Shown: positions 8,194 to 26,014 of the stretch, one piece after another
Position numbering within the stretch: the stretch's first letter is position 1
How the letters are laid out: each line of letters begins with the position of its first letter
Assembly (NCBI GenBank): GCA_022711395.1
Contig: JAKLFA010000002.1
Location: 323,864 to 387,863 of the forward strand
Direction: 5' to 3'
DNA from: Candidatus Omnitrophota bacterium
Lineage (GTDB): Bacteria > Omnitrophota > Gorgyraeia > Zapsychrales > JANLHA01
Length of the DNA: 64,000 nucleotides
The notes under the pieces: generated by a model
What the model saw: the letters and a program-made list of their open reading frames with translations, nothing else
The model's database searches: none
What the model was told of the DNA's origin: nothing
Made by a program: the position numbers and the translations under genes

Positions 8194-8204
8194 TTAGATG
8201 ACAA

Positions 8205-8358
8205 TTTGAATAGTAAACTACTCGAAAGAGTAGGGCACAAAGCCGTGAGCCTAAGTCCTTTGCCATGTGAGGATATGGCTGTCTGGTTACCGTAACTCGA
8301 AATTTAAGTGAGTTCCGTTAATCGAAAAAGCCCTTCTCCTCTTTCAGAAGGGTTTTTT
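8205..8358 (+). promoter_or_regulatory. c-di-GMP-I (GEMM) riboswitch, copy A. The aptamer is about 8205-8322 and is followed by an intrinsic-terminator expression platform (stem 8331-8352, U-run 8353-8358).
   Basis: AAACUACUCGAAAGAGUAGGGCACAAAGCCGUGAGCCUA…CUGGUUACCGUAAC matches the GEMM-I consensus (AAACC..UCGAAAGA..GGGACGCAAAGCC…GGGGUUACCGAUGG): a GAAA-tetraloop P1 hairpin, the CAAAGC core and the GUUACCG 3' element. A second copy lies at 25.9 kb with compensatory stem changes. Confidence 0.65.
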
Positions 8359-8386: not shown

Positions 8387-8629
8387 ATGATTAGAAAACT
8401 CTTTTTTCTGATCGTCCTTTTCAGCCTGGTCAACACATCGGCAGCGTTCTGTGAAACCTCGTCTTTCAAGGTCTCGGTGACGATCCCGCGGATCGTGGGG
8501 GTCAATTATTTCCCCCAGGACAGTGAGATCGCCTCCAGCCAGGGCAAGAAAGGCCAAGCGGATTTCACGGAACAGGTGATCTTCAGGAATGGACAGGAAG
8601 TCCTTCTGAAGACACATGTAGAAAAATAG
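8387..8629 (+). CDS. Small secreted protein (80 aa with a signal peptide) directly downstream of riboswitch A
   Basis: GGAAAGGGG RBS then ATG at 8387. N-terminal signal peptide MIRKLFFLIVLFSLVNTSAA. No recognisable domain. Confidence 0.55.
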   Translation: MIRKLFFLIVLFSLVNTSAAFCETSSFKVSVTIPRIVGVNYFPQDSEIASSQGKKGQADFTEQVIFRNGQEVLLKTHVEK

Positions 8630-8646: not shown

Positions 8647-8710
8647 AAACCCCGTTGCCGTTCAACTAGGAGGTTCCGAGTAACTCGTGGCGCGGGGTTT
8701 TCTATTTTTT
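8647..8710. terminator. Bidirectional intrinsic terminator between the convergent small ORF (+) and the large OMP gene (-)
   Basis: AAACCCCG…CGGGGTTT outer stem with an inner paired region. It is flanked by an A-run on one side and a T-run on the other, so it can terminate on both strands. Confidence 0.5.
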
Positions 8711-11700
8711 GATGGACACTGGGACGTGCAGCATATAGGTCGTCCCTTCGCTCACTTCAATCTTGTGTTCTAAAGCGATATTAGGCAAGTACTGCAAAGG
8801 GATCGAATTGATGTCGATCCTCAGGACATGTTTTCCATCCGCGATATTATTGAAAAAATACGCCCCTCTCATGTCGCTGGATGACGTCAACTCTCCATCG
8901 AGGACCACTCTAACGTTGGCAAGTTTTTCTTCATTGGCGTCCGGGACCTTGTTTCCATTGGTGTCCACAAAAACGATCCCGTAGATCCCGGAACGCGTTG
9001 CCAGCGCGATGTCATGGTCAATAACATCCTTATGCTTGATCTCGAACTCTTCCTGAGACTGGTCTTGAAAGACGTACCCATCCGGGACCGTGTCAAAATC
9101 CAGCCCGATAACGAGCGTGCGCGCCTTGATCTGTGTGTAATACCATCCCGCCTCATCTGTCACGGCGGAATCCTCTCCGATCAGGACCCGAACACCGGCA
9201 ACACCGGGTTCCCCATCATCCTTGCGGCCGTTGGAATTGACGTCCTTAAAGACATGTCCCTGCACCAGAGCGGACGGGTTCCAGGCAAAACCCAAATCCC
9301 AGGTTGAACGCATCCCGAAATTCAAGCTTGCTTCTGTGTATGACGTGTTATTCAGGTTCTCCGACCAAATGTCCCGCAACCGTCCATCCACATAAATATC
9401 AACATCCTGATTCGGCGAGAACGTCAACCCGCTGCTTGTGGTCAAACTGTCTTCCCCGGCCAAAAAGCTCTTTTCACTTTCAGTGCGCTGCTCATCCCGG
9501 TACGAAAGGCCGGCGTTCCAGCGCCACTGGTCATTGATGGCCCTGCGATAGCTTAACGCCGAATAGAACACCGACGGATAGACCGTATCTGAAGGATCGC
9601 CGCGGTCTTTGACATAATACTGTTCATAGCTGTTTGAAAAGCTCAAGTTGTTGGTCAGAGAATATTGCGACCCAACCGTAATGCTGTTGCGGTCATAATC
9701 CGACTGCATATTGGAATCCGAACGGCGCAACTGCGTTGTGCCGGTGACATACGTTGAAAGGCTTCGAGAGAAGACATTAAACAGCCTTGAATAAGTCGTG
9801 CTTAAACGGGTGTCTGTGTCATCCGACAGAAGCCCGGGGCTGTGGAAATAATAGAAGTCGCTTCTCCAGGATGAGCGGTCTTCAAAAGGAAGATAAACAT
9901 TGGCGTTAAAATCCGTGTTAACGGCATCGGGGTTTTCAGGGTTTTCGATCTGGTGGTCCCGGTAAAGGTCCAGGTAGGTGTTAAAATCAAAACGTTCAAA
10001 CGCCTTACGGTAAATAAATTCCGTTCCCACTTCGCCTTGCCCTGCGGGAGCCCCGCTCACGTTGGCGTAGCCAGAGGGAATATTACGGGCCCGGACCTCA
10101 AAGCTGGTCTCATCATCCATGATATAATTCATCCGGGCTTTTTGCGCCATCTCATCTTCATCATGAGCGAATTCCGTGAACAACGAAACGTTTTCGTTGA
10201 ACTTGTTCTCCGTTTCCACGGAAACCGTCCGGTCCTTGGCGAACCGGGATTTATCATCCCCCCAGGCCCTGGCGTAATTGATCCCCAGCCCGAAATCATC
10301 GCTGGGTTTATACTTCATCCGCAGGCCTTCGACGTAGGATTCGTTTTTAGATGATATCGTCGGTGAAGCCACTGTTCCGTAAGTCGATCGGGCCTGCCCG
10401 CGCAGGATGGTATAACTCACTTCATCATAATAGACTTTGTCCTGGAACAGAACACCGCGGATCTGGCGGCCCGGCAATGTCAGGTCGCTGAAATGGGTCG
10501 TCGAATCAAAAAGGCGCAGATGAAAATCATCGACCATGGCGATATTGCCATCTGAAAGCCCCATGGTATAGTAGGTCGCCTCCGTTGGATCAAGATCTGT
10601 TTTATGAAGTGTGACCGCCCCGTCCAGATTTCCGTAAGGAGTGGGCCCGTAAAGACCGAAATTGTTGACAAAATTCAAAGAATCCCGGTCAAGATTGTCC
10701 TTGCTGTCCCCGGAATAATTCGTGTACCAGCTGGTGTCATAGGTGAATTTGAAATGCTCCACGGAGCCTTGCCGCTTGGGAGCATACAGCTGTTCCTTTT
10801 CAATGGTCTTGACGGGAAGGACCATCTTCAGGGTGAACGTCCATCGTCGCCCGGAATCTTCCCAGATATGCAAAAAAGTCTGGCTGCGCATGACAGGCGA
10901 GATTTCAATTTCAGTGCGGCTTGACTGAGCGATATCGATCACTTCAGGCGCGGTGACCAGAAAACGGCTGATCCGGTCATAGGAGCGGATCACGAGTTTC
11001 GTGTCTAAAGGCAATTCGATCAATGTGTTGGGCTGTTGTCCCCAAAGATAATCGGTCAATTCGATCAGTTCAACAGGAAATGTCTTGTCCGCCATGGCTG
11101 GAGCACGCAAAGTCCCGTCATCATCCAAATCATCACTCCCGGAAATTTGTGCGCGAGTCCCCAATGATGTTTTTTCAACGGCCGATGGCCAATCCGGATC
11201 GCTCTCAGCAAGGGCCGCGGCAGGCGTTTTTTCAGGACGTTGCTTCACGGCATCACGGACGATCTCCTCAGATGGCGATGTTTGACCCGAGGTCTTCGAT
11301 AAATCCGGCGCTGTTAAAGACCTGACAGGCTTGCCGGCAACGGCAGGCTTTGATGTGACGCGTTCTGGCGAAATGTTTCTGTCAGGCAGAACCGGGGCCG
11401 TTTTCTCCTTGCGGTCGGAGATCGGTCCTTTTTCCTGAACCGGCAGATCCTCAATGCGGTTCTCGATCAAACGCTTTACAAGATTGATATAGTGGACGAG
11501 CTCCGGATCGCCGGGCTGCACACTTTGAGCGGTTTCAAAAAAAAGCAGGGCCCGCTGATAATCCCTTTTTTCAAGGGCCTCAAAAGCAAGCTCCCGATAA
11601 TTTTGATAGATCGTGGAGTATTGCGCAAAGGCAGGGCCCGGCATGGGTTCCGTAAAACTTAGCCCAAACCCTATCGTGGTCAAAACGAAAATATGGATGA

Positions 11701-11716
11701 GTTGTTGACGTCTCAT
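8702..11716 (-). CDS. 1004-aa outer-membrane protein: signal peptide, TPR-like N-domain, long Pro/Ser/Thr-rich linker, a small periplasmic domain, a large (about 550 aa) beta-barrel and two C-terminal SdrD-B/CarboxypepD_reg-like beta-sandwich domains. Candidate usher-like assembly platform.
   Basis: Signal peptide MRRQQLIHIFVLTTIGFGLSF…AFAQ; TPR-like …YQRALLFFETAQSVQPGDPELVHYINLVKRL…; alternating aromatic beta-strand pattern across about 550 aa; C-terminal repeats …VQGHVFKDVNSNGRKDDGEPGVAGVRV… and …IYGIVFVDTNGNKVPDANEEKLANVRVVL…. Confidence 0.45.
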   Translation of the reverse strand: MRRQQLIHIFVLTTIGFGLSFTEPMPGPAFAQYSTIYQNYRELAFEALEKRDYQRALLFFETAQSVQPGDPELVHYINLVKRLIENRIEDLPVQEKGPISDRKEKTAPVLPDRNISPERVTSKPAVAGKPVRSLTAPDLSKTSGQTSPSEEIVRDAVKQRPEKTPAAALAESDPDWPSAVEKTSLGTRAQISGSDDLDDDGTLRAPAMADKTFPVELIELTDYLWGQQPNTLIELPLDTKLVIRSYDRISRFLVTAPEVIDIAQSSRTEIEISPVMRSQTFLHIWEDSGRRWTFTLKMVLPVKTIEKEQLYAPKRQGSVEHFKFTYDTSWYTNYSGDSKDNLDRDSLNFVNNFGLYGPTPYGNLDGAVTLHKTDLDPTEATYYTMGLSDGNIAMVDDFHLRLFDSTTHFSDLTLPGRQIRGVLFQDKVYYDEVSYTILRGQARSTYGTVASPTISSKNESYVEGLRMKYKPSDDFGLGINYARAWGDDKSRFAKDRTVSVETENKFNENVSLFTEFAHDEDEMAQKARMNYIMDDETSFEVRARNIPSGYANVSGAPAGQGEVGTEFIYRKAFERFDFNTYLDLYRDHQIENPENPDAVNTDFNANVYLPFEDRSSWRSDFYYFHSPGLLSDDTDTRLSTTYSRLFNVFSRSLSTYVTGTTQLRRSDSNMQSDYDRNSITVGSQYSLTNNLSFSNSYEQYYVKDRGDPSDTVYPSVFYSALSYRRAINDQWRWNAGLSYRDEQRTESEKSFLAGEDSLTTSSGLTFSPNQDVDIYVDGRLRDIWSENLNNTSYTEASLNFGMRSTWDLGFAWNPSALVQGHVFKDVNSNGRKDDGEPGVAGVRVLIGEDSAVTDEAGWYYTQIKARTLVIGLDFDTVPDGYVFQDQSQEEFEIKHKDVIDHDIALATRSGIYGIVFVDTNGNKVPDANEEKLANVRVVLDGELTSSSDMRGAYFFNNIADGKHVLRIDINSIPLQYLPNIALEHKIEVSEGTTYMLHVPVSIKK

Positions 11717-11738: not shown

Positions 11739-12578
11739 TTATTGCGTGGCGATCACCTTATAGCTCACGCCTGTTTTGCTGAATTCCACTTCCGTGACAG
11801 AAGACGCCCCATCCTCCAGGTCAAAGGTCAGGACCGTCAAATATCGCCCATCATCCGCGACCCCCGAAGAAAGCTTGATCTCAAATTGAGCATCACTGCC
11901 AGCAGGAAGATAGATCTTATCAGCCTCCCCTCGGTCAGCGGGCACCCCTGAGCCGGAATTCAAAATATAAAACAAGGGCGTGATCACGAGGGTGACGTTC
12001 CCCTGGTTCTTTACGGTCCCACGCATGGTCCCGCCTTCAATGTTGATATCCGAAACCGCGATCTTTTTGGTCCGGTCATTGGTCTCAACAAAGAACAGGG
12101 TCCCCACCCTCGACAGGACCGTAAGCCCCGCTTTACTGCCCTCCCCGACCGGCGTCAGACCGCCATCCAGGATCGTCTTCTCCATAAATAATACGCAATA
12201 GTATCCCCCGTCCGCGTCTGCCGGCATGTTGATCGTGTAATTGATCTTTTTCTGTGAAAATGGCGGAATATGCACGGTCTGCGGATAAAAATTGATCCAC
12301 TGGCTGCAGGAATCAGACACTGTCCCTGACGGAAAAAATTCTTTTTTACCTCTGAATGGCGGAATATAACGGAAGTCCTCAAAATAGACCGTCAGGTCGA
12401 TCGCTTCGTTGCCGGTATTGTGGACCGTCAAGGCATCGGCCGTTTTTTGGGCCGGCGCCAATGAGAGTTTGACCTTTCCCTGCTCAACCAGGACTTGGGC
12501 GTCCGCGAAAGGGATCATCACCCAGCAGTAAAACCACATGATAAGCAGGATTTTTTTAACGCTTTTCCGCATCGTCAT
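11739..12578 (-). CDS. Periplasmic protein, candidate PapD-like pilus chaperone (two Ig-like domains inferred)
   Basis: Signal peptide, and an N-terminal …QGKVKLSLAPAQKTADALTVHNTGNEAIDLTVYFEDF… that resembles the chaperone N-domain pattern. A …TPLFY… segment and operon context next to pilin-like and OMP genes also support it. The call is weak from sequence alone. Confidence 0.3.
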   Translation of the reverse strand: MTMRKSVKKILLIMWFYCWVMIPFADAQVLVEQGKVKLSLAPAQKTADALTVHNTGNEAIDLTVYFEDFRYIPPFRGKKEFFPSGTVSDSCSQWINFYPQTVHIPPFSQKKINYTINMPADADGGYYCVLFMEKTILDGGLTPVGEGSKAGLTVLSRVGTLFFVETNDRTKKIAVSDINIEGGTMRGTVKNQGNVTLVITPLFYILNSGSGVPADRGEADKIYLPAGSDAQFEIKLSSGVADDGRYLTVLTFDLEDGASSVTEVEFSKTGVSYKVIATQ

Positions 12579-12605: not shown

Positions 12606-12635
12606 CGGGCGCCCTTGAAGATCAAGAGCGCCCCC
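12606..12635 (-). terminator. GC-rich hairpin with a short T-tract between the pilin-like gene and the chaperone-like gene (candidate intra-operon attenuator)
   Basis: Minus-strand RNA GGGGGCGCUCUUGAUCUUCAAGGGCGCCCGCUAUUUU has a 6-bp GC stem followed by UAUUUU. Confidence 0.3.
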
Positions 12636-12658: not shown

Positions 12659-13273
12659 TTAATTGACAACAGCCGTGACCAACAGGATCCCGGAATAATC
12701 ACCAGGATTATCGGCCGGGCTGAACACTTCTTCGTCATCATCACCGGTGCTGTTATCCGGATCGCCGTTGAAAATGCCGACATAGAGTCTCGGCCATCCG
12801 CCCGTAAACTGGCTCTTATCCAAGGTGCCGATACCGGCGACTTTGCCCAAAAGGACTTTATTGATCACCGTATCGTTATCACCGTCGGTCTTAACAACCG
12901 TCAACGAACCCTTGACATCCAGGCCGCCTAAGGCTGTTCCCTGATTCGGGTTCGTGCCCGGCGTGTAGGAGAAGGAGATATCATCCGGTTGTCCGGCTCC
13001 GTCGCCTGTGGTGCCGATGTCGATAGCATAATAAAACGGTGAATAAAAGATCCCGTTGACGCTATCATAAAGCAGCTGCCCGAAGTTGAGGGCGTTGGTG
13101 GCCGGGGTCCAAGTGCTTCCCTGAACACGGCTGACAACGAACTGGATCGCGCTGGATTTCTGAATGTTGACATTGATCCCGAACGATCCCTGGTCTGCGA
13201 AACCCGCAGTTGCGCCCAGAAGCAGCACAGCCACTCCCAGAAGCATGATGAAACTGAACTTGATTGTTTTCAT
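12659..13273 (-). CDS. Small secreted protein (about 175 aa mature), candidate pilin-like subunit (SCPU / spore-coat-U-like)
   Basis: AGGAGG RBS before ATG at 13273 (MKTIKFSFIMLLGVAVLLLGATAGFA). Gly/Thr/Asp-rich, beta-type sequence with an …LNFGQL… motif. Sits immediately upstream of the chaperone-like gene. Confidence 0.35.
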   Translation of the reverse strand: MKTIKFSFIMLLGVAVLLLGATAGFADQGSFGINVNIQKSSAIQFVVSRVQGSTWTPATNALNFGQLLYDSVNGIFYSPFYYAIDIGTTGDGAGQPDDISFSYTPGTNPNQGTALGGLDVKGSLTVVKTDGDNDTVINKVLLGKVAGIGTLDKSQFTGGWPRLYVGIFNGDPDNSTGDDDEEVFSPADNPGDYSGILLVTAVVN

Positions 13274-13314
13274 ATGTTCCTCCTTTATTTTTTTATTTAT
13301 AAAAACGAGCTGGT

Positions 13315-14700
13315 TCACATTTCTCCAAGTGAATAGCGGACCTCGGTATAGTAATCCCCGGGTGCCATTTCCGCGTAAGGTCTCACTTGGTAGAAAACAC
13401 GAAACTTCGCCGGCGAACCTGTTTTGTCAGAAGTAAAAAGCACCTCGCCACGCTCTTTGACAGGTTCAAATTCCGGCGCCAAGACCCTCCCGGTTGATTC
13501 CTCCAACAGCTCGGTACTGACTAAAAAATACTGCGGATCCAGTCGCTGCCCGCGTTCATTGGCCAAAGGCGTCGTCAGCTCCTGGGTCACGGAATACGGC
13601 CTTCCAATGTTGGAATTGACCTTCACCACGACAGAAAAAGTCTGCGGCGGGCCGCCCGCGAACAGATTCTTGAACCGCATAGGCCCTTCAGGAAATCCCA
13701 GTTCGATCTCAAATTCCGGCTTGATGTAGACCGCCAGATCAAACAAGTATTCCTTTTCTCCCTGCGGGCCTGAAACAGCATACCTCAATTGTCCCAAATA
13801 TTCCCCCGCCTCCAATGAGGAAAAAAAGGACGGGTCCACGCCGTAGCGGAGCACGCATTGATCATCAGCCGTGTTTGCTGAGTAGATCAGCATGCGCCTG
13901 CGCTCCATCGCGGCCTTATTACTGTAAGGCAGCTCGGAACTCACGTTGCATTGAGAATCAAATGTCAAAGACTGCAATGGGATCTCTTTTCCATTGCTGT
14001 TATTAGTCGGAACACGCAAAAGTTCCTGATAAACTTTCAGTTCGCCCACATTCCCGTCATACGAAAGATCCACGCGATAAGCCGGCTCTGAACCGCGCTC
14101 ATTGGACAGCTCGATCTGATCACGCCCCCGCTCTCCTCTTATTTCCAAATTAAAATCCAGTTCCGCGTCCAGGATCACATCCAGATAAATATTCTGCTCA
14201 TTTCCACCGCCCGATACCGGCCGCACCGAAAACATAATTCGGCCATAATACTGCCCGGATTTCGTGATCCGGTCCCGGTCCACGATGTAGGCCAGGACAA
14301 ACCGGTCGCTCGATCCGTTTTCAGGGGACGTGTAGATCAATTGTTCCGAACGGCCTAGATATTCAGGCATTTGCGCGTAGAGCGCCCCGGATGAATTGGA
14401 CCCAGAGACAGAATAAAATTGGAGCACGTCACGGTTCTGCATTCCGCCCTGAGGTGATGTCAACGGATCGATCATCCGCTGAAAGACCTGGTATTGACTT
14501 CCCTCGCTTGAAGTCAGACGGATGCGCACTTCCTTCTGCCTGCCATCCAAAACGTCCTGCCGGCCGAACTGAAGTGAGGAACTTCCCTGGATCGTGGTGG
14601 CAGAGATCGACACCTCAGCGAGGGCCGCGGAAACATTCCCCAGGACCATCACGCCCAGCAAAAGCCCCAAATATGTCCCTGTCTTCTTAATCATGGTCAA
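13315..14700 (-). CDS. 461-aa secreted protein of unknown function, first gene of the fibre-like operon (candidate large subunit/adhesin)
   Basis: Signal peptide MTMIKKTGTYLGLLLGVMVLGNVSAALA. Beta-rich, with an …SLQFGRQD… motif resembling that of the 219-aa protein. No known domain recognised. Confidence 0.4.
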   Translation of the reverse strand: MTMIKKTGTYLGLLLGVMVLGNVSAALAEVSISATTIQGSSSLQFGRQDVLDGRQKEVRIRLTSSEGSQYQVFQRMIDPLTSPQGGMQNRDVLQFYSVSGSNSSGALYAQMPEYLGRSEQLIYTSPENGSSDRFVLAYIVDRDRITKSGQYYGRIMFSVRPVSGGGNEQNIYLDVILDAELDFNLEIRGERGRDQIELSNERGSEPAYRVDLSYDGNVGELKVYQELLRVPTNNSNGKEIPLQSLTFDSQCNVSSELPYSNKAAMERRRMLIYSANTADDQCVLRYGVDPSFFSSLEAGEYLGQLRYAVSGPQGEKEYLFDLAVYIKPEFEIELGFPEGPMRFKNLFAGGPPQTFSVVVKVNSNIGRPYSVTQELTTPLANERGQRLDPQYFLVSTELLEESTGRVLAPEFEPVKERGEVLFTSDKTGSPAKFRVFYQVRPYAEMAPGDYYTEVRYSLGEM

Positions 14701-14841: not shown

Positions 14842-16314
14842 TTAATTCAATGACCCTGAACCGCTTTGAGCAGGAATGTTATTACGCATCAAAATTTCTT
14901 TGGTAATATCTTGTATTTTATCCGTGGCGATAATGATCTTTTGGCCAAAATCCGTCTCAAAACGGATAAACTCACCGGTCTCATTTTCAAGCAAGGACAC
15001 AAAATCCGAAAATGATACAAACTCGTTCCCGTTTACGTTCTTAATGACTTCATGGTTCACATCAAAATATCCGACGCTCAGATCATCCGGCAAAATGTTC
15101 AATAAGACCACGATCTCTTTTTTGCGCGGATAATTCAGCCGCGCTTTTCCAAAGGCATAATCAAGATATCCCAAAGGGGCGGTCTCCCACCAATTTTTCC
15201 CCCAGGTCTGCAAAAGATCCATGCTTAAAACAGTAAAAACCAACCCGCCATAGATATAATACGGCGGCTTTGAATAACTGTTGGGCGGCGGGACCAGACC
15301 TTTAAAATCCGTGAACGTCACCGGCACTTTCAGGATATTCCCCTCCCGTAAGACCAAAAGCTCGGCGATCTCACCGATCTGTTTTTCAGTGACCAGATAG
15401 GAAAAGTCCAACCGTTCATTGCTCCGGAACTGGATCGTCGCGTCCGCTTCGATCTTGACGCCGTCGATCTCCATCAGGACGTCGCCTTCTTTCAAAACCT
15501 GATCCACCGGCGAGAACGGCAAGGCCCTGGAGATCACCACCCCTTCGTTCTTTTTGGGGATCCGGTAGAATTTCTGCAGGGCCGGGTTTTCGCTATTATC
15601 ATATTCGATCCCAAGAAAGGGAAAGCCGTCATACTCCCCGTCATCGACATCCTTTAAAAAATGGGTGATGACGTTGGTCGGGATCATAAAACCGATATTT
15701 TGACTGTTGGCGATCGCCTGCATGGCCACACCGACCAGCTTTCCATCCTGCACCACAGGCCCACCGCTGTTGCCCGGATTGATGGCCGCGTCGATCTGCA
15801 CGCCTAAAAGGCGCTTTCCGCTTTGAGCGTAGGGGATGATCTCAATGCGGGACACCACTCCTTTGGTAATGGAAAGCTTGTCCCCTCCCAAGGGAAATCC
15901 AATGACAAGGACCGAATCCTGAAGCTGAGGCAGACCTCCCAGGGATAACGGCTGCAAATCCGAAAAGAACTCCGGGTCATCCACGGTCAAAAGGGCAAGG
16001 TCGCAATCATGGCCGATCGCCAGAAGCCGTGCCGTGTATTTTTTGGGAGAAGACTGTTTGCGGACCTGAATAAAGGTATGATCAGCCACCACATGCGCGT
16101 TGGTCACAATACGGTTTCCCGCGATCACTCCCCCCGACCCTGTCGAAGCCTGGCTTCCCAGCGTTTGCCAGGGTTTTGAAAAATCCACCGGGTTTGCCGT
16201 GACAAAGACCTTGACCACCGCGTCCGAAATGTCCGCGGAAAAAGCCGTTTGATGCGGAGCAATAAAAAAACAGAGCGACCCGCACAGAATGACCAGCCGT
16301 AGTATTTTGCTCAT
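14842..16314 (-). CDS. Periplasmic serine endoprotease of the DegP/HtrA family (trypsin-like domain plus PDZ)
   Basis: Catalytic His context …GNRIVTNAHVV… and GNSGGPVV serine motif, followed by a PDZ-like C-terminus. Start is at MSKILRLVILC… (16314); the track ORF was over-extended. Confidence 0.8.
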   Translation of the reverse strand: MSKILRLVILCGSLCFFIAPHQTAFSADISDAVVKVFVTANPVDFSKPWQTLGSQASTGSGGVIAGNRIVTNAHVVADHTFIQVRKQSSPKKYTARLLAIGHDCDLALLTVDDPEFFSDLQPLSLGGLPQLQDSVLVIGFPLGGDKLSITKGVVSRIEIIPYAQSGKRLLGVQIDAAINPGNSGGPVVQDGKLVGVAMQAIANSQNIGFMIPTNVITHFLKDVDDGEYDGFPFLGIEYDNSENPALQKFYRIPKKNEGVVISRALPFSPVDQVLKEGDVLMEIDGVKIEADATIQFRSNERLDFSYLVTEKQIGEIAELLVLREGNILKVPVTFTDFKGLVPPPNSYSKPPYYIYGGLVFTVLSMDLLQTWGKNWWETAPLGYLDYAFGKARLNYPRKKEIVVLLNILPDDLSVGYFDVNHEVIKNVNGNEFVSFSDFVSLLENETGEFIRFETDFGQKIIIATDKIQDITKEILMRNNIPAQSGSGSLN

Positions 16315-16336
16315 GGTGTATCCTTTTGATTGTGTG

Positions 16337-17926
16337 TTAAAAAGAACCTCGGCCAGAAGAAAAACTTTCGGAAAGGTCATCTTTGATCTGCTGATAAACG
16401 GCTTCATCGGACAACCCATACATCCATTCCTGAGGGATCAATTCCGAGGTGCGGGCCATACCAGAAGGCTCGGATAAGGCCTCTCGCCCATCTCCCTGCC
16501 AGGTCACGGCCTTGCCATCCGGAACAGACGCGGATCCCATGATCTTACGAAGTTCCATTTCCCTCCGTTCCAAAAGAATGGTCAGGTCTTTGATTTTGAC
16601 CCTGTAATTATCGATCCGGTCATTCAGCTCGAGGATCGTGCGGTCCTTGAGCATAAAAACATCATTGATCCTCGCCAGGTCCAGGTCTCTCCCCTGAAGG
16701 GAACGACGTAACCGGGATATCTGAACCTCTTTCTTAAGATTATCAACCCGCAGCCAGATATTGGCCTTTGATAAACGGTCAAGCTGTTGCCCGATCTTGG
16801 CCATCTCCACCTGATTACCCAGGGCCACGTCCTGAATGCGGGCACGAAGACCCGAAACCTCATTTCTCAATTCTTCAAGCCCCCCGTTGGCCAGTCTGCC
16901 GCCATTGCTGCCTAAATCATGGACCTGTTTCTCAAGATCCAAGATCTGCGTATCTTTATCCGTAACGATCTTCTGCACCAGAAGCAGCCGCTCCTTGGTC
17001 TCGGCCAATTCCTGCTGTAAAGTCTGGATCTGGGACGTGCGGTCCGCCAGACGGCTTTCTCCTTCATAAAGGTTCAGTGACATATCCGCCAGTTCCTGGG
17101 TCAGACGCGTCACCTCACCGGAGGTCTGGGAAAGTTTCTGCTGCAGAACGTCCATTTCAAGCGCAACGGAATCAAATCGTCCGGAAAAAGCGTCCAGCTG
17201 TTTCTGCTGCTGGTCAATGACCGTGTTCTTGAGCGCCAACTCTCCTCGGATCTCGGTGATATCAAGGTCGACCGCCGCTTCTTTCCGCTGGGCTTCCAAG
17301 ACACGGACCCTGGCCTCAAGCTCGGATTTTTGCCGTCGAAGTTTTATGTCCCGCTCGCCATAAACATCCACATAGGCCAGGTAGGCCTTTTTGAGGTTCG
17401 AAAGGATCTCATAAACGGACATCTTTTTAGATGAGCTGTCCTGCATCCCCCCAAAGACCGTTGGAAGAACGATCGATTTAAGCTCGATCAAGCGTTCCGA
17501 CCCCTCGTTCAGCAATTCAACATCGGGTTCCGCGCTCACCTGAAGATAGCGTTCCCGGGCCTGGGATGCCTGTTCTTCGATCATGCGCGCGCTGGATTCA
17601 TAAAATTCAAGCCTCGTCCTTAAAAATTCCAGATATCCCAAAATGTCCATGCAGCGCCTGCCTTCATCGGCCGCCTGCTCAGCGATCTTTTCGATGCTGG
17701 CGCTAAGCTGATCAAACGCCGCGCGGTCAAGAGGATCGCGCGACAGAACTCCAGCGTATGACATCGCCGCATCCGCATAATTTTTTTCAGCAAAGAGCTT
17801 CTCAGCGTATTCACGCTGCCAGGTCATCGTCCTTTCGCCGGCTTGAGCACAGGCCGGCGAACCCCCAGCGAAGACCGCTATGGTGAAAAAAACAAGAAGA
17901 ACCATCCGTTGAATAGACATGATCAT
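16337..17926 (-). CDS. Secreted/periplasmic coiled-coil protein with an N-terminal TPR-like segment (529 aa)
   Basis: Signal peptide (…VFAGGSPACAQA) and a long heptad-rich region rich in Q/E/L/R. No enzymatic motif. Confidence 0.55.
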   Translation of the reverse strand: MIMSIQRMVLLVFFTIAVFAGGSPACAQAGERTMTWQREYAEKLFAEKNYADAAMSYAGVLSRDPLDRAAFDQLSASIEKIAEQAADEGRRCMDILGYLEFLRTRLEFYESSARMIEEQASQARERYLQVSAEPDVELLNEGSERLIELKSIVLPTVFGGMQDSSSKKMSVYEILSNLKKAYLAYVDVYGERDIKLRRQKSELEARVRVLEAQRKEAAVDLDITEIRGELALKNTVIDQQQKQLDAFSGRFDSVALEMDVLQQKLSQTSGEVTRLTQELADMSLNLYEGESRLADRTSQIQTLQQELAETKERLLLVQKIVTDKDTQILDLEKQVHDLGSNGGRLANGGLEELRNEVSGLRARIQDVALGNQVEMAKIGQQLDRLSKANIWLRVDNLKKEVQISRLRRSLQGRDLDLARINDVFMLKDRTILELNDRIDNYRVKIKDLTILLERREMELRKIMGSASVPDGKAVTWQGDGREALSEPSGMARTSELIPQEWMYGLSDEAVYQQIKDDLSESFSSGRGSF

Positions 17927-18753
17927 GAATTATTCGGAGTTATCGAAATCGAAACAGTTTTTGAAATAACGTCGGGCTCAGCGCTCCCCGAGTCCCACTC
18001 CACCATCACCACAACCGGAACATCGGACTGATATTCCGCTTTTTCCGGCACCCGGATCTCATAACGGCCCACGATCTGGTCATCCGTAAAAAGATGATCG
18101 AACGCCAGGACGTGGATCTTGACCGGAAGTTTCGTGATATTTTTCAGGTCCACCCGGACAAAGACCTTTTCCCCAGGATGAAATGCCTGATGCTGCAGCG
18201 GATACTGGATATTAAAATCCCCCACACCAGAACCGCCCGCGGCGGCATCCGCTGCCGGATCCGCTATGGCAGTCAACGCGCGGTCCTTGATCAGATCACG
18301 CCCAAAATTGACCGAGAACGCTTCTGATGAGCCGCCAAAAGGGGCCTCAAAAGAAAGCTCAAATTTCTCCGCGGCATTGACCGGAAGCTCAAAAACCAGC
18401 GAAATTTTTTTCCCCTCCCCAGGATACAGGGTGAAGGCTGAAAGCTCCTCTTTGCTCAGGAGCCGATAGATGTTCTGGTATTCATCCTTGATCTTAGCGG
18501 CTGGGACGCTCAAAACATCGATCTTCCGGTATTCTGAAGAATTCAAAAGCTGCAGTTCCACGCGGAGCGCCCGGCTGATCTCAGGCGCCTGAGGGACAGA
18601 GACCTCTTCGATCGCCGCCTTTTGAAAGGAAACATGGACGGCATCCGAAGATGCTTGCAAACGGCTGTTTAGCCTGACCTCTGCCATCGCGGTAGCGGCC
18701 AACCCCAAACAGGCCGAACAGAATATGATCAAATAAAAGAAAAAGGCTTTCAT
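17923..18753 (-). CDS. Secreted protein of unknown function (about 275 aa)
   Basis: Signal peptide MKAFFFYLIIFCSACLGLAATAMA. Start overlaps the downstream gene by 4 nt. Confidence 0.45.
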   Translation of the reverse strand: MKAFFFYLIIFCSACLGLAATAMAEVRLNSRLQASSDAVHVSFQKAAIEEVSVPQAPEISRALRVELQLLNSSEYRKIDVLSVPAAKIKDEYQNIYRLLSKEELSAFTLYPGEGKKISLVFELPVNAAEKFELSFEAPFGGSSEAFSVNFGRDLIKDRALTAIADPAADAAAGGSGVGDFNIQYPLQHQAFHPGEKVFVRVDLKNITKLPVKIHVLAFDHLFTDDQIVGRYEIRVPEKAEYQSDVPVVVMVEWDSGSAEPDVISKTVSISITPNNS

Positions 18754-18825
18754 GTTGGGGCTATTATAGCATAAATGCCCAGGCAAAAAATCGGAAAATC
18801 GCATAAAATTAGTTCGTCGAGGAAA

Positions 18826-19200
18826 TCAGATGTTTTGGTCGATCGCTTGAATAAGCTCTTCGACCGTGCAGGGCTTGGCAAGGAAAGGATAACCTGAAAT
18901 GAACCCGTCTTCCTGATTGACTTCGGATTTCCGCACCGTCGCGGTCAAAAAAATGATCGGGATCTGAGCTGTTTGTTCGTTTTCCCGAAGCTGACAAAGC
19001 ACGTCCGGACCTTCCATCTCCGGCATGATAATATCCAACAGGATCAGTTCCGGCCGGTATCCCAAAGCCGTCTCAAACGCCCGGGTCGAATCATTTTCGA
19101 TCCGCACAAGAAAACGGCCGGTATCCTCAAGGTTCAGCTTCACCATTTCGGTGAAACCAACCTCATCATCCACGATCAATATGCGTTTTGGTTCTGTCAT
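18826..19200 (-). CDS. Single-domain response regulator (CheY-like receiver)
   Basis: …ILIVDDE…LILLDIIMPEMEG…FLAKP… is the canonical D-D-T/K receiver pattern. It overlaps the upstream kinase gene by 4 nt (ATGA). Confidence 0.85.
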   Translation of the reverse strand: MTEPKRILIVDDEVGFTEMVKLNLEDTGRFLVRIENDSTRAFETALGYRPELILLDIIMPEMEGPDVLCQLRENEQTAQIPIIFLTATVRKSEVNQEDGFISGYPFLAKPCTVEELIQAIDQNI

Positions 19201-20393
19201 TTCCCGTTGACCTTAAAGACCAGCCTGGCGCGAGCGCCCTGCTTGTCTTCCTTATTGGCCAGATCGATCATCCCGCCATGCGAATCCATGATCGTCCGGG
19301 CGATCGACAATCCCAGCCCGACGCCTCCCGCGGCCCGGTGTGTGGTAAAGAAGGGATCGAATATTTTTTCAAGATATTCATCCGGGATGCCTTTTCCTGT
19401 GTCCTCAAAATCCACGATCAGGACATCTTCCCCGACCGCGATCGAATCCGTCAGATTGGATGCCACCGAAATGTCGGACCGGTCAAAGATCTTGCGCGTG
19501 GTGCGGATCGTGAGCGTGCCTCCGTTTTTCATCACCGCGATCGCGTTGAGGATCAGATCAACGACAACTTGCTCGATACGGTTCTTGTCGATCAAGACAT
19601 TCGGAAGGTTGGTGGCAAAATGTTTGACGATCTTGATCTGGAATTTTTCGCACTGATGATGCGTGAGGACCAGCCCCTGCTCGATCGTTCGCTCGATCGG
19701 GCAGAGGTCTCTCTTGATATCTGAAAGGCTGGCAAAATCCAAAAGGTCTTTGATAATGCTGTTGGCCTTATACGCCGCGTCCTTGATGGAACGCAGGGTC
19801 AGCTCGATCTTGTCATCCCCGTCTTTAAGGACCGTGTTGAGATATTCCACCCCGTAAAGGATCGTTGCCAGGGGATTTTTGACCTCATGAGCGATCCCGC
19901 TCGCGACGCCACCGACCACGTTCATTTTTTCCGCGCGGATCAGCTGGGCCTGCATTTCTTTCAGCTCATCCATGGCCTTGTGCAGTTCAGTCTCCGCCTT
20001 CTTTCGTTCGATCGCGTAATAAAGCGCCTTGACCAGCCCATAGGACTTATACATCCCCTTGATCAAATAATCCTGGGCGCCCATCGTCACCGCCCTCAGG
20101 CCAAGATCGTCCTGGTACTCACCCGTATTGACGACAACCGCCAGTTGCGGATAGCGGCCATGAAGGCGCTTTAACGTATCAATCCCGTTACTGTCCTTGA
20201 TATTCAGGTCAAGAAGAACAACATCCACCAGGCTTTGCTTTAGAAGTTCGAATGTTTCCTGCAGGGAATCCGTGGCGCTGATCTGAAACGAACCATATGG
20301 AGCTTTGGAGAGCATGTTGATAAGGACCGCCCGATCGACATCATTGTTCTCGACGATCAAGACTTGAAGGGTCCGCTTCAGCTCAGTATCCAT
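19197..20393 (-). CDS. Hybrid sensor histidine kinase with an N-terminal receiver domain followed by HisKA and HATPase_c domains
   Basis: Receiver (…VLIVENNDVDR…VVLLDLNIKDSNG…); H-box …GIAHEVKNPL…; N/G boxes (…DTGKGIPDEYLEKIFDPFFTT…GGVGLGLSIAR…). Confidence 0.85.
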   Translation of the reverse strand: MDTELKRTLQVLIVENNDVDRAVLINMLSKAPYGSFQISATDSLQETFELLKQSLVDVVLLDLNIKDSNGIDTLKRLHGRYPQLAVVVNTGEYQDDLGLRAVTMGAQDYLIKGMYKSYGLVKALYYAIERKKAETELHKAMDELKEMQAQLIRAEKMNVVGGVASGIAHEVKNPLATILYGVEYLNTVLKDGDDKIELTLRSIKDAAYKANSIIKDLLDFASLSDIKRDLCPIERTIEQGLVLTHHQCEKFQIKIVKHFATNLPNVLIDKNRIEQVVVDLILNAIAVMKNGGTLTIRTTRKIFDRSDISVASNLTDSIAVGEDVLIVDFEDTGKGIPDEYLEKIFDPFFTTHRAAGGVGLGLSIARTIMDSHGGMIDLANKEDKQGARARLVFKVNGK

Positions 20394-24682: not shown

Positions 24683-25486
24683 CTAAAGATATTTGGAGAT
24701 CTGTTCCAAAAAGGATTGTTCATTGAACCGGTCAACATATTCGGTCGCGCCGGCCATCATCGCCTCCTGTGCGCAGCGCTCGATCACGGCCGCCCGTTTG
24801 CGGAATTCCGCAGACGCCAGATCGCTGACGCGGTAATAACTGTAGATCAGGATCGGTGTTTCTTCATGATGCGGGAACAGCCGGATCGCCTTGACCACGT
24901 CCTGCACTGAACGGCCATCCTCCAGCTGCGCTTCCAAAATGATCACATCGGGCTGAAAATTGACCACATGGACCAGGATATCCGCCGCGGTCTTGGCGTT
25001 CTGAACGTGGTATCCTTGCGAATTGAGCCCCTTGATGATGCTTTCACAGACCTCAGGATACGTCCCGAAAACCAGGAATTTCTGGGCCGCCTTCTTGAAA
25101 TGCCCGTGGCTGCCGTAATGGGCGAGCGTTTTATCGATCGTCGACAGCAGAACGTTCGGGGCGCTGGGCTTTTCTAAGAATCCGGCGACCCCTAAAGCGG
25201 CGAAAGCGTCCTCCATTTTTCCTCTGGCGGTCAGAACGATCACAGGGATCTCTTTTGTTTGAGGGTGCTCCCGAAGGGCCTTACAAAAGACGAATCCGTC
25301 CATTTCAGGCATGAGGACATCGGTCAAAATCAGATCAGGGTGGGCTTTTTTCAATAGATCAAGGGCTTCGGTCCCGTTGCCGGCCTGTAACACGATGTGC
25401 CCGGCGGTCTCAAGGTTCAAGGCAAGCATCTGCCGTTCGGCAGCTTCATCTTCAACAACCAGGATAATGGCCATTGTTCCCTCCAT
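24683..25486 (-). CDS. Response regulator with a receiver plus a second receiver-like domain (paralogue of the 21966-22784 gene)
   Basis: …ILVVEDEAAER…PDLILTDVLMPEMDGF…IPVIVLT…FLEKP…. Shares PDLILTDVLMPxMDGF and IPVIV segments with its paralogue. Confidence 0.75.
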   Translation of the reverse strand: MEGTMAIILVVEDEAAERQMLALNLETAGHIVLQAGNGTEALDLLKKAHPDLILTDVLMPEMDGFVFCKALREHPQTKEIPVIVLTARGKMEDAFAALGVAGFLEKPSAPNVLLSTIDKTLAHYGSHGHFKKAAQKFLVFGTYPEVCESIIKGLNSQGYHVQNAKTAADILVHVVNFQPDVIILEAQLEDGRSVQDVVKAIRLFPHHEETPILIYSYYRVSDLASAEFRKRAAVIERCAQEAMMAGATEYVDRFNEQSFLEQISKYL

Positions 25487-25534: not shown

Positions 25535-25792
25535 TTAACGCCGTACCAATTTCTGGTACGTGATGACCTCATAACGTGTTTCAATGACCGGCCGGTAGAT
25601 GACCTTGGTCGTAACACGCTCTCCGCCTGAAACGCTCATGGAGACCTTAAGAGGCCTGTGAAAACTTTTTCCCGAGTAGGATCCGGAAGCGGCCTGGGCC
25701 TCTGAAACAGGCTTGACCGAACCGGAAATAAAAATGAACAGCAAAACTGCGGCCGCGATCAGCCACGCTCCCATGGAACGTTCGTCACGCAT
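25535..25792 (-). CDS. Small secreted protein (85 aa) directly downstream of riboswitch B
   Basis: GGAAAAGGGGG RBS then ATG (MRDERSMGAWLIAAAVLLFIFISGS…) after the terminator hairpin. Has a signal peptide. The track ORF start at 25846 would overlap the terminator. Confidence 0.5.
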   Translation of the reverse strand: MRDERSMGAWLIAAAVLLFIFISGSVKPVSEAQAASGSYSGKSFHRPLKVSMSVSGGERVTTKVIYRPVIETRYEVITYQKLVRR

Positions 25793-25814
25793 AGGTGCCC
25801 CCTTTTCCGGCAAT

Positions 25815-25975
25815 AAAAAAGCCCTCCGAAAGATCAGAGGGCACAATATTGCCTTAACGGAACTGGTTAGCGTTAGTTACGGCAGCCAGACAGCCATACC
25901 CAGCGGCCACGGAGGGCGCTGGGGGTAGGCTCACGGCTTTGTGTCCTACTCTTTCGAGTAGTTTACCTTTGAAAC
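25815..25975 (-). promoter_or_regulatory. c-di-GMP-I (GEMM) riboswitch, copy B. The aptamer is about 25975-25854, with an intrinsic terminator (stem 25842-25821, U-run 25820-25815 on the minus strand).
   Basis: Minus-strand RNA …GGUAAACUACUCGAAAGAGUAGGACACAAAGCCGUGAGCCUACCCCCAGCG…CGCUGGGUAUGGCUGUCUGGCUGCCGUAACU…AGUUCCGUUAA. It is near-identical to copy A in the conserved core; the variable hairpin differs but keeps its pairing (CCCAGCG/CGCUGGG here versus UCCU/AGGA in copy A). Confidence 0.65.
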
Positions 25976-26014
25976 GGACTATAAAAGAACAAGTGAGAGA
26001 GCTGCTTCACTTTA

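Follow-up and report, generated by a model that had tools for sequence, protein, structure and literature searches.

What is a 1004-amino-acid (aa) outer-membrane protein that carries a tetratricopeptide repeat (TPR) module and a flexible linker in front of its beta-barrel, and two beta-sandwich domains behind it? The question is raised by a 64,000-nucleotide stretch of DNA (the window) from a Candidatus Omnitrophota bacterium (GenBank assembly GCA_022711395.1, contig JAKLFA010000002.1, positions 323,864 to 387,863 of the forward strand), in which this protein, here called the pore, is the product of the last gene of a cassette for secreted proteins. Omnitrophota are uncultured, mostly ultra-small and thought to be host-dependent. 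An earlier reading made from the DNA letters (the original prediction) found the layout of the pore reminiscent of an usher. We find the pore to be usher-like in fold and genomic context, yet it fails several defining usher features. The explanation that we favor, at a probability of roughly 0.55, is that the pore is the outer-membrane assembly or secretion platform of a new chaperone-usher-like surface-fibre system, linked to cyclic di-GMP (c-di-GMP) and present mainly in Omnitrophota.

The pore gene occupies positions 8702-11716 of the minus strand, and its open reading frame (ORF) encodes 1004 aa from an ATG start. The domains were delimited on an AlphaFold2 (AF2) model built on 108 family sequences (mean predicted local distance difference test score, pLDDT, 85.8; predicted template-modelling score, pTM, 0.67), which supersedes an earlier model from a shallow alignment (pLDDT 62). 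At the N-terminus is a signal peptide (aa 1-31; 11624-11716, minus strand) with an RR pair, a hydrophobic core and predicted cleavage between AFA and QY, modelled as a helix over aa 2-22. An identical public protein, P0001 (980 aa; the 100% identical product on a JGI contig), starts at Met25, a gene call by which most of the signal peptide is lost. The next module (aa 32-86; 11459-11623, minus strand) consists of three helices (aa 30-84 in the model), or ~1.5 repeats, and is a genuine TPR. The family profile of this region matches consensus TPR proteins in the PDB with E values of 1e-28 to 7e-47, the Pfam model TPR_2 is matched by 22 of 50 family members, and the module is present in 106 of 107 aligned members.

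Between the TPR module and the membrane-embedded part lie a linker (aa 87-213; 11078-11458, minus strand), which is modelled with pLDDT <50 (disordered over aa 91-211) and whose length ranges from 0 to 163 aa across the family, and an eight-stranded, predicted periplasmic beta domain (aa 214-300; 10817-11077, minus strand). Family alignment, the AF2 model and Pfam place the latter in the type of PF13629 (T2SS-T3SS_pil_N, ‘Pilus formation protein N-terminal region’). This profile matches 39 of 50 family members (best E 7e-10), and its match in the window pore itself is weak (E 0.028, aa 233-294). Invariant W285 and R291 fall inside the domain, and a short helix (aa 302-310) separates it from the barrel.

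The barrel (aa 323-807; 9296-10750, minus strand) is supported by the model, by the family alignment and by a barrel-only homologue described below. It comprises 485 aa modelled with pLDDT >95, and DSSP assigns 26 strands whose connections alternate between turns of 2-4 residues and loops of 4-18 residues. The strand count is even and the even-to-odd turns are short, which places both sets of terminal domains on the periplasmic side, as in ushers. Conservation is concentrated in a hairpin at ~415-442, with R420, G421 and G440, and in the loops 544-564, 588-603 and 739-758, which are candidates for lumen gating. Two SdrD_B / CarboxypepD_reg-like beta-sandwiches complete the protein (aa 808-908 and 909-1004; 8705-9295, minus strand; modelled over aa 815-1001). 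The Pfam model SdrD_B is matched by the window pore at E 4.8e-11 and by all 50 family members.

The order that the original prediction had read from the sequence (signal peptide, TPR, linker, small beta domain, barrel, two SdrD-B-like sandwiches after the last barrel strand) is the order found, with every module present. Its measurements fared less well. The linker is disordered, as foretold, but has 127 aa instead of ~150, and although 29% of its residues are proline, serine or threonine, 32% are charged; the barrel, at 485 aa, falls short of the ~550 aa proposed. Neither NCBIfam nor a PDB sequence search gave a match for the window pore, and the matches of the family profile to PDB sequences are confined to the TPR and SdrD parts. 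Likewise, Pfam and NCBIfam models reach only the terminal domains (SdrD_B, PF13629, TPR), and none covers the barrel.

The pore might be taken for an orphan from a word-indexed search, which returned only four relatives. An exhaustive HMMER profile search discarded that idea, yielding >100 full-length representatives after clustering at 50% identity. The recurrence of the architecture in so many representatives shows that it did not arise by chance. A scan of species-representative genomes found 24 pore loci, of which 21 are titled Candidatus Omnitrophota/Omnitrophica or belong to the Omnitrophota genus Candidatus Aceula, and three carry the titles ‘uncultured Planctomycetales’ or ‘Planctomycetia’. 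Minimal cassettes exist outside the main pore family. In one, from Candidatus Saganbacteria (locus L031, 8001-10359), a gene resembling the one that precedes the pore gene in the window, p279, accompanies a barrel-only homologue of 490 aa, which can be aligned with the entire barrel (98.7%). In another (locus L032, 8001-10735), a p279-like gene accompanies a 652-aa protein with two SdrD_B domains and neither TPR nor linker.

Which known structures does the pore resemble? In a Foldseek search of the PDB with the AF2 model, ranks 1-10 are all FimD and PapC ushers (E 5.7e-19 to 1.0e-10), and the alignments to full-length FimD chains span ~810-860 columns. The next families, FadL, TonB-dependent receptors, MOMP, AlgE and LptD, begin near 1e-9. 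The target-normalised template-modelling (TM) score is 0.51-0.53 for the FimD translocation domain (3ohn) and 0.22-0.24 for LptD, a 26-strand barrel. TonB-dependent receptor and FadL identities were ruled out by these fold scores and by the absence of family matches. A secretin, which PF13629 might suggest, was also rejected, because the pore is a monomeric barrel that has no secretin domain.

The genes around the pore provide a second line of evidence. From ~22.8 kb down to 8.7 kb of the window all genes lie on the minus strand, and the three directly upstream of the pore gene, p461, p219 and p279, each encode a protein with a signal peptide. The order p461-p219-p279-pore is kept in related loci down to 23% pore identity. 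When the window proteins were compared by tblastn with 26 distinct related loci, a p279 homologue was found upstream of the pore gene in 23. Two of the exceptions, L012 and L020, do not extend far enough upstream to tell, and in L004 one extra gene lies in between. Most of the 26 loci also contain p461. By the same search p219 was detected in closer loci only, and elsewhere its position is a gene-sized gap, which suggests that p219 evolves fast.

Such conservation bears on a reading in which the pore is a general large porin, or an LptD-like barrel handling lipopolysaccharide or lipids, with generic Ig (immunoglobulin)-like domains and a cassette held together by co-inheritance only. The 26 strands do equal the number in LptD, and LptD is among the fold matches at ~1e-7. 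Yet the low TM score to LptD given above, the lack of both the OstA/LptD N-terminal jelly-roll and any LptD family match (Pfam, NCBIfam), and a tight synteny with p279 that holds over 23-65% pore identity and into another phylum make this very unlikely, the least probable of the explanations that we weighed.

The most informative partner is p279 (11739-12578, minus strand), a 279-aa secreted protein that we consider a candidate periplasmic chaperone or adaptor. Its signal peptide is followed by two Ig-like domains, and the C-terminus has no hydrophobic helix. With a profile of 25 family sequences, a PDB search aligned p279 over its full length with EfmWxLIP1 of E. faecium (36-266 versus 24-264, E 1.3e-3) and also matched the fimbrial chaperone EcpB (E 2.6e-3). 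PF06030 was found in nine of the 25 family members, always under the gathering score, and a search of a 5.8-billion-sequence database returned PF06030-bearing or WxL-named proteins with E values of 3.9e-15 to 1.1e-6. A direct hhalign comparison with EcpB reached 86% probability (E 5e-6) over 160 collinear columns that cover both domains, with the p279 strand RVGTLFFVE aligned to RIGTILVVAP of EcpB; the alignment with EcpE is collinear but weak. PapD_N and PapD_C of Pfam have no match in the p279 family. Judged by sequence, p279 is significantly related to the WxLIP/DUF916 proteins (E 3.6e-9 to 3.9e-15 in the same database), and this kinship is stronger than that to EcpB. WxLIP is reported to have two IgG-like domains, and the prediction for DUF916 is that one of its hairpins inserts into the WxL domain of the partner (PMC10599100). 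Such strand insertion would be akin to chaperone action.

Immediately upstream of p279 is p219 (12659-13273, minus strand, counted from the probable start at the ATG of Met16; the 219-aa ORF spans 12659-13318), a small, fast-evolving secreted protein and a candidate major fibre subunit. No relative of p219 was found in database, Pfam or PDB searches. In its mature form it begins with an alternating-hydrophobic strand and closes with a GxYxG strand. Between the p219 and p279 genes is a GC-rich, terminator- or attenuator-like hairpin (12607-12633, minus strand; fold z-score -4.5) with a U-rich tail. All four other loci tested (L003, L005, L006, L007) have a strong hairpin of different sequence in the same position (z -3.8 to -6.6). 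In pap and fim operons, a terminator or attenuation after the major pilin gene (papA/fimA) sets the excess of that subunit. By analogy, the hairpin after p219 parallels the attenuation after papA/fimA, and its placement behind the p219 gene suggests p219 as the abundant major subunit. The first cassette gene encodes p461 (13315-14700, minus strand), a secreted protein of three homologous ~140-aa beta domains that may be a second subunit or an adhesin. It is an internal triplication (hhalign 99.1-99.8% among its three thirds), and each domain ends with a GxYxGxIxY-type strand. As in p219, the mature protein starts with an alternating-hydrophobic strand. With the p461 profile, the CfaE-CfaB pilin fusion is found as a weak match (E 0.016).

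Could the cassette instead be a diderm version of the Gram-positive WxL/WxLIP surface display? In that case p279 would be a structural adaptor and no recycling chaperone; it would leave the cell together with p219 and p461 and keep them at the surface by non-covalent contacts, and the barrel would be both export pore and anchor, in a plug-and-barrel arrangement like LptD-LptE. The strongest sequence kinship of p279, over its full length, is indeed with WxLIP/DUF916-DUF3324, a 26-strand plug-less barrel with short loops needs a filler, and the barrel-only Saganbacteria homologue still pairs with a p279-like gene. However, p279 has no membrane anchor and its export is a supposition, Pfam (E<=5) finds a WxL domain in neither p219 nor p461, and LptD is a poor fold match (TM 0.22-0.24). 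A WxL partner was also looked for beside a distant WxLIP-like match in Nonomuraea, and none was found. Moreover, the hairpin suggests that far more p219 than p279 is made, a ratio that suits a polymer better than a 1:1 assembly. We regard this explanation as a doubtful one, though it is the most credible of the rivals to a chaperone-usher-like system.

How far, then, does the likeness to chaperone-usher systems extend? Several results weigh against it. Barrel-only usher structures (3ohn, 2vqi) score ~1e-9 to 1e-10 with Foldseek, like other barrels, so that the lead of ushers is largely due to the collinear flanking domains. In sequence, PF00577 is unmatched by the window pore (E<=1) or by any of 50 family members (E<=0.01), no Usher, PapC_N or PapC_C profile and no NCBIfam usher model is matched by the pore family, and hhalign of the pore with FimD and with EcpC gives probabilities of <1%. 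A CooC_C match in one of 50 family members (E 0.007) is within chance. The terminal domains, PF13629 and SdrD_B, are of other Pfam families than PapC_N and PapC_C. The barrel of the AF2 model has 26 DSSP strands and not the 24 that the original prediction expected of an usher; to arrive at 24 in this model, the conserved ~415-442 hairpin would have to sit off the barrel wall. There is also no plug-sized insertion in the modelled barrel, where the longest inter-strand connection is 18 aa (443-460). Among the partners, p279 has no significant hhalign match to FimC, p219 has no detectable pilin similarity, EcpA included, and the comparison of p461 with EcpD was negative. Finally, because the barrel-only Saganbacteria homologue is still paired with a p279-like gene, the terminal domains are apparently not essential to the core function.

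The usher-like reading of the original prediction is thus partly supported. The fold ranking, the collinear layout and the neighboring EcpB-like gene speak for it, and the strand number, the plug, the sequence and the domain families speak against it. The pore resembles an usher in fold and gene context, and membership of the usher family is not established. The rival outcome named at the time, a barrel of 16-22 strands from a known transporter family, is not what the model shows either.

Beyond the stop codon of the pore gene, on the opposite strand and convergent with it, is a c-di-GMP-I riboswitch aptamer (8202-8294, plus strand; Rfam 67.6 bits versus a gathering score of 35). It precedes a gene for an 80-aa secreted protein (8387-8629, plus strand) with a signal peptide and conserved N- and C-terminal strand motifs. 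Twenty related loci have sequence downstream of the pore gene, and the riboswitch and the small secreted protein occur there in 16 (L003, L004, L005, L007-L012, L015-L019, L021 and L026). In each of the 16 the riboswitch is of class I or the GGC variant, 300-800 nt past the pore stop codon. The small proteins share an N-terminal SFxVSVTIPxIxGVN motif, a variable linker and a C-terminal motif of hydrophobic residues, Thr, hydrophobic residues, any residue, and R or K. Their N-terminal motif aligns with the start of mature p219. A relationship of the small protein to p219 was considered and set aside as a weak lead, as the hhalign probability of 94% with signal peptides falls to 20% without them (P 1e-3, 18 columns).

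Control by c-di-GMP is usual for adhesion and biofilm functions. It is also typical of exopolysaccharide systems, and the PgaA, BcsC, PelB and AlgK-AlgE porins, too, have a TPR at the N-terminus and a barrel behind it. Might the pore then be a TPR-porin that exports a polysaccharide or other non-protein polymer, of these types or of the type associated with PEP-CTERM, with neighbors that are unrelated or accessory? Besides the order of the two modules, AlgE is among the fold matches (~4e-8), and TIGR03016 (PEP-CTERM-associated outer-membrane protein) is weakly matched by three of 50 family members (best E 3.9e-4). But ~1.5 TPR repeats (three helices) compare poorly with a long superhelix, as do 26 strands with 16-18, and ushers match the fold ~10 orders of magnitude better than AlgE. 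No synthase or glycosyltransferase was found among the annotated genes next to the cassette in the window, nor by Pfam in the gene-called loci; the conserved partners are instead three secreted beta-sandwich proteins. We consider polymer export of this kind unlikely.

How might a chaperone-usher-like system of this composition work? Sec would export p219, p461, p279 and the pore. In the periplasm, the two Ig-like domains of p279 may cap beta-sandwich subunits by strand insertion, as PapD/EcpB chaperones and WxLIP proteins would do. Those parts of the pore that are predicted to be periplasmic, its PF13629 N-domain and both C-terminal sandwiches, could recruit and hand over the p279-subunit complexes, after which the subunits, with p219 probably the abundant major one, would polymerise and thread through the wide barrel. 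In-folding conserved loops, or the ~415-442 hairpin, may take the part of a plug domain in gating the barrel, and the TPR module on its flexible tether could serve as an added periplasmic docking arm. The riboswitch-controlled small secreted protein may start, cap or anchor the fibre.

Other features of the window and of related loci lie around these genes. Upstream of the cassette, a block on the minus strand (14842-20393) encodes a DegP/HtrA-like protease with PDZ domains, a 529-aa coiled-coil protein, a 293-aa protein, a response regulator and a hybrid histidine kinase. This synteny occurs only in the closer relatives L003, L005 and L007, and the block may serve the fibre system in envelope stress or quality control. 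A second c-di-GMP-I riboswitch (25878-25977, minus strand; 67 bits) is located upstream of a small signal-peptide ORF (25535-25846, minus strand), whose C-terminal motif …ITYQKLVRR resembles that of the 80-aa protein, and a gene for a 267-aa response regulator follows (24683-25486, minus strand). In four related loci an extra ORF of ~90-116 aa lies between the riboswitch and the small-protein gene (L011 5368-5670, L012 2687-3037, L015 13110-13379 and L017 12594-12869; minus strand, locus coordinates). Since this ORF lacks a signal peptide and contains a conserved motif, RVVTFLNR.EVDFLDKLGKDALFS, it may encode a small regulator. In two related metagenome-assembled genomes, group I intron matches occur ~6 kb downstream of the cassette (L008 19363-19607 and L009 19437-19647, plus strand).

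Type IV pili, Tad pili and giant ORFs make up the attachment machinery known in Omnitrophota; they are covered in a survey of the phylum that mentions no usher or fimbria (PMC10066038). In the literature that we searched there was nothing relevant on ushers in Omnitrophota or on tetratricopeptide-bearing chaperone-usher systems, and the statement in the original prediction that a TPR-containing usher has not been described stands within that literature. No cassette partner protein reaches a curated family threshold, and together with the lack of any model for the barrel this means that genome annotation misses the whole system. If our explanation is true, the cassette gives Omnitrophota a third surface-fibre system, so far unannotated, and is a concrete candidate for attachment to hosts. 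A plug-less usher-type platform with a tethered TPR arm would test which usher features are required, and the likeness of p279 to WxLIP on one side and to EcpB on the other suggests that the strand-inserting Ig chaperones of monoderms and diderms share an origin.

A wider proposal, which we offer tentatively, is that the cassette and the riboswitch-controlled protein constitute a distinct, phylum-wide, c-di-GMP-controlled pathway for the secretion of fibres or surface proteins. Its Ig partner would link WxL/WxLIP proteins evolutionarily to the chaperones of chaperone-usher systems, and its 26-strand, plug-less, TPR-tethered pore would be an independent or very early-diverged solution to the task of an usher. 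Host-dependent Omnitrophota nanobacteria may use such a pathway to build their attachment organelle.

Several known systems share parts with the cassette. The secretins of Tad/Flp systems (CpaC/RcpA) have the PF13629 N-terminal domain in common with the pore, but they are multimeric, whereas the pore is a monomeric 26-strand barrel without a secretin domain. The TPR of the pore also cross-matches models of the PilW/Tgl type and PilF structures, as in the Tad TPR pilotins (PilF/PilW/Tgl), although TPR matches are generic. With the ECP/Mat and class 5 (CFA/I, CS1) systems the cassette shares an operon logic of pilin, chaperone, usher and large multi-domain subunit, along with the EcpB match of p279, the weak CfaE-CfaB match of p461 and the weak CooC_C match. 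All three sequence signals are weak and that of CooC_C is within chance; EcpA, EcpC and EcpD have no similarity to cassette proteins, and the large subunit comes first in the Omnitrophota cassette, unlike in ECP and class 5. WxLIP proteins (DUF916 + DUF3324), by comparison, have in p279 a full-length homologue with two Ig-like domains. They possess a C-terminal transmembrane helix that p279 does not have, and they are encoded in Gram-positive WxL clusters, whereas p279 is encoded in a diderm beside an outer-membrane barrel.

So, is the pore an usher? FimD and PapC have 24 strands and a plug domain of ~85 aa between beta6 and beta7, unlike the plug-less barrel of 26 DSSP strands described here. 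Their terminal domains are PapC_N and PapC_C, without sequence similarity to the PF13629-type N-domain and SdrD_B-type C-domains of the pore, which has in addition a TPR module and a tether of ~127 aa. Like these ushers, the pore is modelled as one large monomeric barrel, preceded by an N-domain on the predicted periplasmic side and followed by two beta-sandwiches, so that the usher order of N-terminal domain, barrel and first and second C-terminal domains is collinear with that of the pore. In both, too, the gene is preceded by one for a two-Ig-domain periplasmic protein and by genes for small secreted beta-proteins.

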